Numbered from the stretch's first letter, positions 21,937 through 25,907 are shown. The stretch: 64,000 nt of DNA from an uncultured bacterium (GCA_903864835.1 CAIPHK010000032.1:3230-67229); one strand, 5' to 3'. The notes: generated by a model not told the origin, from the sequence alone. Numbers and translations are program-made.

Positions 21937-24621
21937 ATGACGCTACCGCCTATTAATCATAATTTTAGGTCTAATCCATCTCAATCGTCTACACCAAAGA
22001 AAAATCCATTTGCATCTGGGCCTAAATCCGTCTTGCCTAAAACACCGATACCATCCCCTCCAGGTTTAAGTAATTTACCCGGGATTAGTTTTGAAGGTAT
22101 CAAAAAAATATCAAGTAATTCATCTCTAAATTCCTCCTATGACGGAGCAACGAGCAATGAATCACGGGAAGTCACGCCTCCTATTTCCGATGTATTCCAG
22201 GAAAGCGTTTCTCGATCGCCTATTACCCCTAAGGAACGATTCCTAGCGACGCCAACGCCAGCGTGGGGACGAACAGTTTGTGACTTAGCCCTACCCGGCA
22301 ATTTACTCGAATATTCCGGTGGCAAAACCTTGAGGTCAAAGACCGTCAGTGAAATGGCCGGGTATCAACATCTTAGAAACTCACCGATTTCCATGAACAC
22401 TTCCCCGATATTAGAGAGGTCTGGAGGTCCGTTAGTCACCGAAATTACAGTCGATATGTCCAAATGTTTTCATGTTGGACCGATTCTGGGTGGCGGTGCA
22501 ACGGCATCTGTAGCGACTGGAAAGATGACCAAGTCGGGTACTGAAACTCAAGATGTTGCTATAAAAAAAGTTAAAGTTGATGCGTTTGACACCGAGGGGT
22601 TAGAACGGTGTATTCGGGAGCGAGAACTATTGGAACATCTTAGCTATATTCCGGGGGTAGTAAAGTGCCACGACTTCTTCTCATTCGTTGGGGAAGGTGG
22701 CCCACAAATTGCGTACGCCCTTTCTCTAGAGGGGCCATCATTGCAGTCACTTATTTATCCGGTGAAAACAACTCCAGACAGCATTGAATTACGCACCCCG
22801 GATGACCCAATATTTCCATTGTGCGAGGCACCAACGGTCCATATTCGAGAAACATACCCAAGGTTCATCGACTCTCTTCTCAAAACTGCCGTTGCGATTT
22901 TTGATGCGGGTGTTATTCATGGCGACTATAAACCCGATAATATTTTAGTCGGTAAAAAAGATGGGATGGCCAAAATCTGCGATTTTGGATTTTCTTTGTA
23001 TGCAAATGAGATGGGCCTAGCGCCTCGGCCGGCTCAGTACACGCCAGATTATGCGGCCCCGGAAATATCGAATGGAAAGGGTCCGTCGTCGCAAAAGTCG
23101 GAGGTATTTTCTTTAGGCTGTGTTCTATACGAAATGTATACCGGAACAAAGTTTACAACAGGTAACGAGGTAGTTAAACGTATTATTGCACTGACTAAGG
23201 GAAACCCCGATCCCAAAATTCCAAAATTTGAAACCCTCAGACAAGTACCCGGTGTTTCATCTCATGTGGTCTCCTTAATCAAGGATATGCTGGAGTTAAA
23301 TCCAGACGATCGACCGACATTGAAAGAGGCGAGCGACCGATTTAACGACCCCTCGTTGATGCCACCTAGTGATCGTGTTACTGCCCAACCCACAATGGAG
23401 ATACTTCGTCGTCTATACATGGGACCTCAGAATCTAAATCCGGGATACAATCCGTTAGAAAGAGAGCGTGTTTCGGGTCAACTTCAAGCCAGCTTTGAAG
23501 AATCGGGGCGTCAAGACGAAAAGACGCCCAAACGTCGTCTACGCGATGAAATGTCGACTTTGGCAAAACAAACCCCTGGATTTATGGCGGGAAGGAAGAT
23601 CGGAGTCAATAGGAGAAATGAATCGATCATTGCGTTCGGTACGTCTGAGATGATGTTGAGTAAAGATGCCGCTGGCAAAGGCGGGTTTGGTAAAGTAAAG
23701 CTATCCCAAAAAAAGGTGAATGGACAAACGCTTGATGTGGCCATAAAACGAACTCTTGCAAAAGGAAATCCACTTAAAGCAATTCGAGAAATTCTTAGAG
23801 AACACCGTATTCAGTCTCAATTTTCGGGGTGTGGGTCGATCTTACAATCCTATGGCGTGGGGTATTATGAATCGAATAAAGCGATACACATGGGGTCTGC
23901 CGTCGATAAATATGAAATCCCTAAATTTGGAGAAGGACAGACAACACTACATACTTTTTCCGAATTAGAACTTGCGCTTGGGCACTTTAAGGTACCGAAG
24001 GACGGTATTCCTGTAGAGATTGCGATCGATCATTTTATTAAATTAGCATCAGCTGTGGATCTGATGCATCAACATCAAGTTGTTCACCGAGATCTAAAAT
24101 ACGCAAATATCCTGCTTGGCACAGACGGTGAACTCAAAATTTCAGATTTCGGCTCGGCTGTCGAAAAAATACCGCCCGATATGCTGGTTCGGAAAAGTGT
24201 AGCGGGTACGCCCGCATTATTACCCCCAGAAACGCTAGGGTTAACCGATGGGAAAATGAAGGGAATCGAATGTGTTTGTCATGAATCGGATTGGTATTCA
24301 CTGGGGTATGTCTTTTCGGCTATGCTCACAGGGCAATCCCACCTCAAAAACGAGTCGGTTTATCAGTCGGATCATCCTAAACGGGTTGATTGGCCCAAAT
24401 TGGAAAGTTACCTTACAACAAATGTGTTTCGGCGCAACATCGAAACGGACATGACAGAAAAACGGCTTCCCCGTTTGATAATTGACCTATTATTACAAAT
24501 GACGAAATTCGACCCCAAAGACCGTCCCTCAGGAACCAAAATCATCGCACAACTTACGGATATCAAAGCATCTCTTGTAACCTTAGCGGACGGTCCCGAT
24601 GAAGAGTCTACTTCCTATTGA
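21937..24621 (+). CDS. Hanks-type Ser/Thr protein kinase with two tandem complete kinase domains and a Ser/Pro/Thr-rich disordered N-terminus.
   Basis: Domain 1 carries 'LGGGATASV', 'VAIKKVKV', 'HGDYKPDNILV' (non-RD), 'DFG' and 'YAAPE'. Domain 2 carries 'GKGGFGKV', 'VAIKR', 'HRDLKYANILL', 'DFG' and 'LLPPE'. A GGAGGG RBS sits upstream. Confidence 0.8.
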   Translation: MTLPPINHNFRSNPSQSSTPKKNPFASGPKSVLPKTPIPSPPGLSNLPGISFEGIKKISSNSSLNSSYDGATSNESREVTPPISDVFQESVSRSPITPKERFLATPTPAWGRTVCDLALPGNLLEYSGGKTLRSKTVSEMAGYQHLRNSPISMNTSPILERSGGPLVTEITVDMSKCFHVGPILGGGATASVATGKMTKSGTETQDVAIKKVKVDAFDTEGLERCIRERELLEHLSYIPGVVKCHDFFSFVGEGGPQIAYALSLEGPSLQSLIYPVKTTPDSIELRTPDDPIFPLCEAPTVHIRETYPRFIDSLLKTAVAIFDAGVIHGDYKPDNILVGKKDGMAKICDFGFSLYANEMGLAPRPAQYTPDYAAPEISNGKGPSSQKSEVFSLGCVLYEMYTGTKFTTGNEVVKRIIALTKGNPDPKIPKFETLRQVPGVSSHVVSLIKDMLELNPDDRPTLKEASDRFNDPSLMPPSDRVTAQPTMEILRRLYMGPQNLNPGYNPLERERVSGQLQASFEESGRQDEKTPKRRLRDEMSTLAKQTPGFMAGRKIGVNRRNESIIAFGTSEMMLSKDAAGKGGFGKVKLSQKKVNGQTLDVAIKRTLAKGNPLKAIREILREHRIQSQFSGCGSILQSYGVGYYESNKAIHMGSAVDKYEIPKFGEGQTTLHTFSELELALGHFKVPKDGIPVEIAIDHFIKLASAVDLMHQHQVVHRDLKYANILLGTDGELKISDFGSAVEKIPPDMLVRKSVAGTPALLPPETLGLTDGKMKGIECVCHESDWYSLGYVFSAMLTGQSHLKNESVYQSDHPKRVDWPKLESYLTTNVFRRNIETDMTEKRLPRLIIDLLLQMTKFDPKDRPSGTKIIAQLTDIKASLVTLADGPDEESTSY

Positions 24622-25313
24622 TTTACCGTGACGTAATGGGTGCTTCTCCCCATGCCCCGCTGTTCGATCTCTCCCCGATTCACCAAGTCGGTGAGCTCAA
24701 GATGTGCTGTTTTATGAGAGACACCGTAAAGAGCCCGATATATTTTGTTTTGAATGGTCGGATTTTGTTTTAGATAGGATATTGCTTCGATCTGACGCCA
24801 GGTGAGCCGCGATTCATTCAGGTTAAGGCCGGGGATTTGCTCGGATATGCCAGGAGATGGGGGGATTTCATTTTCAACGGCTGATACCTCCGCTGAAGGC
24901 ATTGCCACTTCTACGATTGTAGATTTAGGCAAGTGCTCCTCGATTAACCGAAAAACCCAAGGACGCGATTCATCCAAGGTGTAAATCACATCGTGATAAG
25001 AATAGGGTCGATACCCTCCCATTTGAACGTCAAGAACGTGAATTTTTCGGTCCCCTTTTTCAACACAGGAGACGGTAACCGAAACTGAAGGGGAAATATC
25101 TTTGAGTAAGGCGGCGATCTGAGCGTCGGTTAAGGTAGATCCCAAAAAATGCAAGTTGGCGCGATCAATACCCACAATCGCCAGCCCGCCAATGGTGTTA
25201 GCAAACGCTGTAATCACTTGGCCCAATGAAACAATGTCGTCCACATTCTTAAAGAATTTAGTTGAGACGGAATCCCCGGACTGTATTAACTGAACAATAT
25301 CAGGCCATTTCAT
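24615..25313 (-). CDS. Schlafen/AlbA_2-like putative DNA-binding protein with a C-terminal HATPase_c_4-like winged-helix region ('RecG-C-terminal-like regulator').
   Basis: The N-terminal 'FANTIGGLAIVGI' matches the AlbA_2 core pattern. The C-terminal 'YRALYGVSHKTAHLELTDLVNRGEIEQRGMGRSTHY' is HTH-like. Confidence 0.55.
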   Translation of the reverse strand: MKWPDIVQLIQSGDSVSTKFFKNVDDIVSLGQVITAFANTIGGLAIVGIDRANLHFLGSTLTDAQIAALLKDISPSVSVTVSCVEKGDRKIHVLDVQMGGYRPYSYHDVIYTLDESRPWVFRLIEEHLPKSTIVEVAMPSAEVSAVENEIPPSPGISEQIPGLNLNESRLTWRQIEAISYLKQNPTIQNKIYRALYGVSHKTAHLELTDLVNRGEIEQRGMGRSTHYVTVNQ

Positions 25314-25451
25314 GCACTATACCCTCATTCTCAACAGGTTGCTGGCAATCTAGTATACTTGTTTATTCCGAAATGTATTTTAAGTAAATTGAGCGGAACA
25401 CTATAATAGATCCTACACTAAAATGTACGCTCATGCGAGGAAAGAAAAACC

Positions 25452-25907
25452 ATGGAAAAACGACCTAGAGGAAGACAGCGTTTGGACGATATCGATCATG
25501 ACGGATTCATGGTTTTGTTAAACGAATGCGGCAATATTACACGGGCCGCAATTATGTTTCAGATGGATCCCAACGTCGTCAAAATGCAACTGCTTCGCAA
25601 AAACTTAAGGATTGGGCGACGGTTTCATATCGTAAAAAATGAAGATCTCCCAGTTACCGGTCGGATAGAAAAAAAGATGTCAGGCCCAGAGACCTTTGTT
25701 GTTGGGGGGCGGTCCGTAACGATTACAGAGCTCACGGACACGCTGAATGAGTTAGGGAATATTAGTAAAGCGTCGCTCAAACTCGGCCTGGTTGACAGCG
25801 GCATTCGTACTACCCTAAAAAATCGAGGGTACGAGATGAAGATCGAGTACATTTTAGTTCCTGCTGACGAAGTTCAGCCCAGAAACAAGCCTATTTCTTT
25901 TGCTTAA
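25452..25907 (+). CDS. Small protein with two repeated helix-turn-helix-like units.
   Basis: The internal repeat 'LNECGNITRAAIMFQM...' matches 'LNELGNISKASLKLGL...'. The gene is divergent from the Schlafen-like gene across an AT-rich intergenic region. Confidence 0.4.
   Translation: MEKRPRGRQRLDDIDHDGFMVLLNECGNITRAAIMFQMDPNVVKMQLLRKNLRIGRRFHIVKNEDLPVTGRIEKKMSGPETFVVGGRSVTITELTDTLNELGNISKASLKLGLVDSGIRTTLKNRGYEMKIEYILVPADEVQPRNKPISFA

Follow-up and report, generated by a model that had tools for sequence, protein, structure and literature searches.

The thiH-dsbD interval of a 64,000-nucleotide stretch of DNA from an uncultured bacterium (GCA_903864835.1 CAIPHK010000032.1:3230-67229; hereafter the window, with all coordinates counted from its first letter) encodes a 232-aa protein in which a Schlafen-fold AlbA_2 domain is linked to a C-terminal winged helix, and this gene, together with its divergently transcribed neighbor, is the subject of the present analysis. 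Open reading frame (ORF) calling on the window places the Schlafen-fold gene on the minus strand at 24615-25313, and its orthologues stand beside thiH in many loci. Across a 138-bp intergenic region (25314-25451), which has a GC content of 37% as against 46.7% for the whole window, presumably contains both promoters and is partly conserved in two related loci (L006 and L091), lies a plus-strand gene for a 151-aa protein with tandem helix-turn-helix (HTH) units (25452-25907), the orthologues of which show 58-97% identity. The flank on that side is dsbD (26128-27840, plus strand), identified by Pfam and locus comparison and conserved in this position only in closer relatives. At its 3' end the Schlafen-fold gene converges on a gene for an 894-aa tandem Ser/Thr kinase (21937-24621, plus strand), with an overlap of 7 nucleotides (CTATTGA, 24615-24621). 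Beyond the kinase are an orphan gene for a 249-aa protein, unk249 (21084-21833, minus strand), and thiH (19978-21075, plus strand), which was recognized by its Radical_SAM and BATS domains in Pfam as well as by synteny, and which is the ancestral convergent neighbor of the Schlafen-fold gene. An earlier reading of the window made from the nucleotide sequence alone, the original prediction, had delineated these genes and regarded the four between thiH and dsbD as a single inserted cassette, possibly a kinase-based stress or phage-response module. All of its ORF coordinates were recovered exactly, the 7-nucleotide overlap and the AT-rich 138-bp spacer were likewise reproduced, and the peptide strings it quoted (FANTIGGLAIVGI, LNECGNITRAAIMFQM and LNELGNISKASLKLGL) were all found in the translations.

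The 232-aa protein consists of a Schlafen-fold N-terminal domain, a disordered linker and a winged helix. It matches PF04326 (SLFN_AlbA_2) with 27.9 bits, above the gathering cut-off of 25.3 (E 3.7e-6), with residues 27-111 aligned to profile positions 19-107 of 118. An AlphaFold2 (AF2) model, built on a 20-sequence alignment and with a mean predicted local distance difference test score (pLDDT) of 79.9, shows two folded domains with a disordered linker between them. The N-terminal domain, as defined by Foldseek, profile alignment and a census of its motifs, spans residues 1-130 (24924-25313, minus strand, as for the remainder of the protein). It is followed by a Ser/Pro/Glu-rich linker with pLDDT below 50 (residues 131-167; 24813-24923) and by a winged helix-turn-helix (wHTH) domain (residues 168-232; 24618-24812), in which three helices and a β-wing are modeled between residues 172 and 229 with pLDDT of about 90. 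In the PDB, Foldseek matched the N-terminal domain to DIP2311 (3lmm), the SLFN13 N-domain (5yd0), the N-domain of a RecG-related protein (2kyy), SLFN5, SLFN11 and SLFN14, and the C-terminal domain to winged helices of the MarR, ArsR, RosR and Fic types. A search of PDB sequences with a profile of the family recovered 3lmm (E 2e-30) through separate N- and C-terminal matches, the latter aligning residues 519-575 of 3lmm with an E-value of 0.002, followed by SLFN13 (2.6e-9), SLFN14 (1.2e-8) and the CRISPR-associated Schlafen, Cash (5e-6). The window protein itself matches PF22168, the DIP2311-like C-terminal winged helix, over residues 194-227 with 22.9 bits, below the cut-off of 27; a Pfam scan detected no PF13749 (HATPase_c_4) at E<=1. 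Thus, the AlbA_2 (Schlafen-core) N-terminus of the original prediction is upheld by a PF04326 score above the gathering cut-off and by fold matches, and its C-terminal winged helix by the combination of the sub-threshold PF22168 match, the AF2 model and Foldseek.

A scan of Joint Genome Institute (JGI) metagenomes with the family profile recovered at least 188 relatives, and around 88 of these genes were called and their neighbors clustered. Across these 88 the wHTH is the best-conserved part of the protein, its mean identity to the window protein being 50% as against 32% for the N-terminal domain, and the SHKTAH.EL...G.GRsT.Y block within it is at least 90% conserved over 89 sequences. The linker ranges from about 35 to about 350 residues in relatives; metagenome-assembled genomes (MAGs) from Saanich Inlet (L016 11128-12762 and L017 2526-4115) have a linker of about 350 low-complexity residues, for a total of 529-544 aa.

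The Schlafen nuclease activity is defined by the motif Ex4ExK, the prokaryotic form of which is Ex4(E/D)xK, and its mutation abolishes both defence and RNA cleavage (PMC13056530). The PF04326 match begins only at profile position 19 and so skips the motif region. Profile alignments to SLFN13, SLFN14 and SLFN11 place the two glutamates at family columns 14 and 19, and the catalytic aspartate (D249 of SLFN14, the second D of GVDD) at column 51. At these columns the window protein has D14 (25272-25274), K19 in place of the second Glu (25257-25259) and R51 in place of the catalytic Asp (25161-25163). Its D14-S-V-S-T-K19-F-F21-K22 segment, with D14-x4-K19 instead of Ex4E, departs from Ex4(E/D)xK in having a lysine for the second acidic residue and a shifted position of the motif lysine. 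Likewise, the G-x-D-D segment reads G48-I-D50-R51 and lacks the third catalytic residue. The motif census of the 88 relatives divides them according to gene neighborhood. All 36 proteins of one context (context B) retain E14, E19 and D50-D51, in the form Ex4ExEK, with both glutamates kept and the lysine one position later than canonical. In context A, defined by thiH, purD or dsbD, the Asp of column 51 is lost from all 30 proteins, being replaced by R, H, V, I, K, N, L or F, and the second Glu is lost from nearly all of them, mostly in favor of K or R. Judged by these residues, the Schlafen RNase site is degenerate in the branch to which the window protein belongs.

The two contexts are well defined by their gene orders. 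Context A has the order purD-X-thiH-thiG, where X is the Schlafen-fold gene, with a dsbD-HTH-X-thiH sub-variant as in the window; purD occupies position -1 in 19 loci, and thiH position +1 in 17 and +2 in two. Context B has the order secA-hpf-comF-X-tpiA-fba-pfk/pyk, with comF at -1 in 29 loci. No recognizable defence genes were found in either context, and both are core-metabolic. Members of the context-B branch (L102-L170, for example L109 6001-6606 and L117 6001-6603) are proteins of about 205 aa with intact Ex4E and GIDD motifs and a short conserved NPWSGKGLNKRQ linker. In a third recurrent context (L103, L120, L145, L150 and L163), a member with an intact motif (EELTDD pattern) is accompanied by a downstream gene for a patatin-like phospholipase. 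The named sources of context B are Candidatus Margulisiibacteriota and candidate division WOR-1, the latter being equivalent to Saganbacteria, a sibling lineage of Cyanobacteria (PMC6349859). Taken with the matches of thiH, this distribution of the family suggests that the window belongs to the Margulisiibacteriota/WOR-1 group. A scan of GTDB species representatives with AlbA_2 peptide patterns returned nothing, a result limited by the patterns used; a thiH-anchored scan did recover relatives.

Exact-protein look-ups and locus comparison showed that the Schlafen-fold gene lies tail-to-tail with thiH in relatives whose protein identity ranges between 84% and about 30%. The convergent arrangement is seen at 84% identity to the window protein in L006, 59% in L007 and L091, 49% in L093, 46% in L008, 35% in L013, 32% in L014 (a Candidatus Margulisiibacteriota MAG), 30% in L015 and approximately 30-35%, over the N-terminal part, in L016 and L017, and it recurs in many JGI metagenome contigs. 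The AlbA_2-linker-wHTH gene is hence an old, vertically inherited family. The HTH gene is retained between it and dsbD in closer relatives (at least 51% identity in the Schlafen-fold protein), being divergently oriented as in the window in L006, L007/L091 and L092, and a divergent form of it is present at 46% identity (L008 and L009).

The kinase and unk249 have a different history. By blastn, window positions 18001-21065 and 24628-26062 are collinear with L006, and the intervening 3562 bp (21066-24627), which carry unk249 and the kinase and lie between the 3' ends of thiH and the Schlafen-fold gene, outside the ancestral pair, replace 10 bp of L006. This segment is absent from L006, L007, L008, L091, L093 and deeper relatives, and the two genes were found only in loci of the same species (L001-L005), at 100% identity. 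Since the Schlafen-fold gene and thiH are already adjacent in relatives that do not have the segment, a single lineage-specific insertion is the parsimonious reading. No terminal direct or inverted repeats were found at its edges, and the ORF list contains no transposase or integrase within it. GC content at third codon positions (GC3) is 0.400 for the kinase, 0.412 for unk249 and 0.48 for the Schlafen-fold and HTH genes (mean of the window genes 0.463, standard deviation 0.039). Composition gives no ground for calling the kinase and unk249 foreign, as both lie within about 1.6 standard deviations of the mean and ribosomal genes score alike. Accordingly, within the thiH-dsbD interval nothing but the kinase and unk249 was inserted, and the Schlafen-fold and HTH pair is ancestral, syntenic and older than the insertion. 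The inserted four-gene cassette of the original prediction is therefore reduced to 3562 bp with two genes; the Schlafen-fold gene and, in closer relatives, the HTH gene are conserved in place with host-like composition, which for these two genes is the pattern that the original prediction itself had named as refuting it.

The 151-aa protein was found, as had been proposed, to contain two repeated HTH-like units: unit 1 comprises residues 14-62 (25491-25637, plus strand) and unit 2 residues 88-137 (25713-25862, plus strand), each with three helices and one long strand. Alignment of the profiles of its two halves with hhalign gave a probability of 82.5% (E 9.8e-6) over 38 columns, and an AF2 model (pLDDT 75, predicted template modeling score 0.65) shows the same unit twice. 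Foldseek matched the single units to the HTH domains of Fis, LysR and ModE, with a root mean square deviation of about 2 Å over 34-38 residues, and returned no significant match for the whole chain (best E 0.35). In Pfam the protein remains below the cut-offs of both HTH_1 (PF00126, LysR; 16.6 bits against 26.6, E 0.008) and HTH_8 (PF02954, Fis; 12.2 bits against 22, E 0.16). Among 1.84 billion representative proteins the family comprises four clusters, namely its own and three distantly related proteins of 120-127 aa, which have the same two-unit layout; unit 1 of one of these also matches unit 2 of the window protein. The 151-aa protein is thus a very narrowly distributed tandem-HTH protein, and it is an internal duplication of a Fis/LysR-like HTH unit, with a resemblance between the halves beyond chance.

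Several related loci show variation in this small gene. L008 and L009 encode an identical 252-aa AlbA_2 protein and differ in the divergent HTH gene, which in L009 is a 66-aa single-unit ORF (2527-2727) and in L008 lies at 1-162; in L008, as in L010, the same MSRMEI start is followed by a different HTH unit up to the contig end. The difference between L008 and L009 may come from an indel, from strain variation or from the assembly. In L007 the orthologue looks like two ORFs, since a run of Ns at about 3700-3720, which marks a gap in the assembly, interrupts it; L091 has the intact 151-aa version. Upstream of the gene, the intergenic region contains two direct ACACTAWAAT repeats (ACACTATAAT / ACACTAAAAT; 25398-25424, plus strand), 17 bp apart and 28-54 bp from the start, which are candidate -10 boxes or operator half-sites; the block is partly conserved in L006 and L091. 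Scans for promoters and terminators carry no weight here, since shuffled sequence yielded at least as many hits.

These observations lead us to favor, with a probability of roughly 55%, an interpretation in which the 232-aa protein is a non-catalytic Schlafen-fold DNA-binding regulator belonging to a vertically inherited family and standing beside a lineage-restricted tandem-HTH protein. The argument for a nucleic-acid-binding function without catalysis is that the active site has decayed, but the fold, the conserved winged helix and the action of purifying selection remain. Under this interpretation, the winged helix would most likely bind DNA, the inactive Schlafen domain might act as a binding, sensing or oligomerization module, and the variable, acidic and Ser/Pro-rich linker could be a spacer between them. 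The 151-aa protein, too, would probably bind DNA and use the 138-bp bidirectional control region jointly with the 232-aa protein, perhaps by way of the ACACTAWAAT repeats, and the kinase and unk249 would be a later arrival that landed by chance between thiH and the Schlafen-fold gene; nothing found here ties them functionally to the pair.

A number of points weigh against this interpretation. D14, D50 and the family-invariant H55 remain in the window protein and could form an alternative site, so that the degenerate appearance of the motif is no proof that catalysis is lost. DNA binding by the 232-aa protein, at whatever target, is a prediction. The HTH partner occurs only in the closest sub-lineage, and the two proteins need not cooperate. 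The intergenic repeats are short and number only two copies, and could equally be -10 boxes or chance occurrences. Selection on the Schlafen-fold gene appears to be strong and purifying, with a ratio of nonsynonymous to synonymous substitution rates (dN/dS) relative to L006 of 0.079, beside 0.045 for the tandem-HTH gene, 0.062 for thiH and 0.085 for dsbD, although dS between the window and L006 exceeds 1 and these values are approximate only. Finally, the taxonomic assignment rests on the names of a few relatives.

A wider proposal, which we advance more tentatively, treats the protein as one member of a lineage-wide, vertically inherited, non-immune Schlafen-wHTH family of Margulisiibacteriota/Saganbacteria, the siblings of Cyanobacteria. 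The branch beside comF, hpf, secA and tpiA would have an intact nuclease site and the branch beside thiH a dead one; in the latter the protein could have acquired a long disordered linker and taken on a new role as a transcription or nucleoid factor of pseudo-nuclease type. From its motif, the Schlafen domain of context B is apparently active, in a housekeeping setting. From its contexts and motifs, the family is probably non-immune, with loss of the active site in one branch.

The same contrast between branches bears on the possibility that the window protein is still a ribonuclease with a remodeled site, for example one using D14, D50 and H55, and that it has a housekeeping role in RNA processing or stress, with the wHTH tethering it to a partner or to RNA. 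The sister branch keeps the complete Schlafen triad beside hpf, comF and secA, both branches have kept the residues D14/E14, D50 and H55, and the N-terminal domain is under strong purifying selection. However, mutation of Ex4E or of the Asp abolishes the activity of characterized Schlafens, as in RorSlfn5 E15A/D20A, and the PDB includes SLFN11 E209A and SLFN14 E211A mutants, which are presumably catalytically dead. In the window protein the second acidic residue has become basic and the Asp an Arg, and across the branch the replacing residues vary (R/H/V/I/K/N/L), a pattern typical of former active sites on which constraint has relaxed. We accordingly consider a remodeled ribonuclease unlikely.

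The adjacency to thiH raises the question of whether the 232-aa protein is a transcription factor for thiamine biosynthesis (thiGH), which would explain its position in a lineage that has no thiamine pyrophosphate (TPP) riboswitch at thiGH. Such an absence is out of the ordinary for thiamine genes of bacteria. Neither a TPP riboswitch nor any other Rfam family was detected upstream of thiG in the window (18900-19500) or in ten related loci (L006, L013-L016, L091, L099, L113, L119 and L140), and thiH is the immediate convergent neighbor in the 17 loci mentioned above and the second gene in two more, while the other flank varies among dsbD, purD, menB and yggS. Yet the comF/tpiA branch of the family is not beside thi genes, the orientation relative to thiH is convergent, neither divergent nor co-directional, the AlbA_2 fold has no known precedent for thiamine binding, and the adjacency may simply be inherited gene order. 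A dedicated thiamine regulator thus appears improbable.

The module that the original prediction envisaged, with the Schlafen-like, HTH, kinase and unk249 proteins acting jointly in a phage or stress response from an inserted thiH-dsbD cassette, has a rationale in current knowledge, as prokaryotic Schlafens are proven anti-phage tRNases and HTH fusions account for 8.8% of the 5,930 prokaryotic Schlafens (pSlfns) in a recent survey (PMC13056530). Moreover, the kinase and unk249 truly constitute an insertion, and the kinase matches the PADLOC mad6 and PD-T4-6 models. The latter matches involve its generic kinase domain only: the protein scores 117 bits against NCBIfam MAD6 (MADS), which has a cut-off of 460, and 41 bits against PglW (BREX), which has a cut-off of 990, and reaches the equivalog level of neither. 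When the four proteins were searched against the PADLOC protein models, there were no matches for the Schlafen-fold, HTH and unk249 proteins. Nor did IMG/VR contain relatives of the Schlafen-fold family, unk249 or the kinase at the sensitivity of the method, and a viral origin was rejected on this ground; the only PHROG matches were generic ones, to kinases and to an AlbA_2-bearing 'DNA helicase' family. The neighbors in the window are men, thi, dsbD, prs, lpt and ABC genes rather than defence genes, and the insertion edges bear no hallmarks of mobile elements. The Schlafen-fold gene and, in close relatives, the HTH gene were there before the insertion, with synteny to thiH across deep divergence, and neither the Ex4(E/D)xK motif nor the catalytic Asp survives. 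A joint kinase-based module is therefore not supported and can be regarded as very improbable. Least credible of all is a toxin-antitoxin-like pairing of a Schlafen RNase toxin with an HTH antitoxin or repressor, since, although a small HTH protein adjoins a nuclease-fold protein across a shared control region, the genes are divergent and not co-transcribed as in type II systems, the nuclease motif has gone, most family members do not have the HTH gene, and the location is not mobile but vertically inherited and fixed.

The inserted kinase begins with about 170 Pro/Ser-rich residues, followed by two complete eukaryote-like kinase domains, matched by Pkinase with 220 bits in two stretches in Pfam. 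In each of these domains the Gly-loop, VAIK, H(G/R)D..N and DFG motifs are present; identity between the halves of the protein is only 29%. It has weak similarity in NCBIfam to the secreted effector kinases LegK1 and XopAU, and some Margulisbacteria are intracellular symbionts (PMC6784892); these two facts suggest that, instead of responding to phage, it could be an effector directed at a host. The unk249 gene is divergent from the kinase gene across about 100 bp, and its product has no match in Pfam, NCBIfam, PADLOC or PHROG; at 90% its cluster consists of itself and a 79-aa fragment. A contig-end ORF in L015 (13975-14586), two genes from a purD-AlbA_2-thiH array, encodes a product with features of a kinase-like N-lobe (...VIKFQRG...EAEILG...), and eukaryote-like kinases may recur near this locus in relatives.

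The wider interest of the locus lies in the recent recognition of bacterial Schlafens as anti-phage tRNases. In the survey cited above, 30.4% of pSlfn genes are without defence neighbors and may be non-immune, and the role of the approximately 30% outside defence islands is unexplained (PMC13056530). The present locus provides a clear example of this class, combining a deeply conserved position among core metabolic genes with strong purifying selection, and its intact-site and dead-site branches offer a natural contrast that makes the role of non-immune Schlafen domains approachable by experiment. If the wider proposal is true, it would supply a concrete housekeeping role for a prokaryotic Schlafen and a case of active-site loss with retention of function. 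A further lesson of the locus is that domain names by themselves are a poor basis for calling a defence island. Its practical weight is modest, as the organisms are uncultured and the function is predicted only.

Both proteins can be compared with known systems. Each unit of the 151-aa protein shares the GN(I/L)S(K/R)A(A/S) signature of Fis/NtrC-type (HTH_8) and LysR-type (HTH_1) domains, but the protein has two units in one chain, each followed by a long β-strand, and no dimerization or effector domain. The Schlafen-fold protein shares with the N-domains of mammalian Schlafens (SLFN13, 5yd0; SLFN11, SLFN14 and SLFN5) the fold of one nuclease lobe, with alignable AFANTxGG...GxD motifs. It differs from them in having a single lobe, an E-E-D set cut to one acidic residue, no helicase or linker domain and a wHTH tail of bacterial type. 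Cash (PDB 9ylu), the Schlafen domain of which was recovered by the family profile, is reported to be fused to a Csx15 sensor and to have cyclic tetra-adenylate (cA4) from type III CRISPR as its activator (PMC13462974, Nat Commun 2026); in contrast, none of the four scanned window proteins matches Csx15 or another sensor domain, and no cas genes occur among the called neighbors. In architecture the window protein falls into the pSlfn-HTH class (PMC13056530, Nat Microbiol 2026), of which it is a variant and in which the same N-terminal PF04326 domain is fused to an HTH domain. This class was not among the pSlfn architectures tested for defence (PMC13056530), and the window protein differs from it in its D14-x4-K19-x-F21 motif with Arg for the catalytic Asp, and in its context of conserved housekeeping synteny rather than a defence island. 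Next-nearest in sequence, at about 1e-8, are the AlbA_2-HATPase_c_4-wHTH proteins, putative regulators annotated as 'RecG-like / RNA-binding domain-containing'. The best structural and profile match, with a Foldseek E-value of 8.7e-5, remains DIP2311 of Corynebacterium diphtheriae, which has the same end domains. DIP2311-like proteins are 430-580 aa long, as against about 230 aa for the window protein, and have a central HATPase_c_4 domain (PF13749), in place of which the latter has 37 disordered residues; the 232-aa protein can also be seen as a DIP2311-like AlbA_2...wHTH protein that lost its HATPase_c_4 core.

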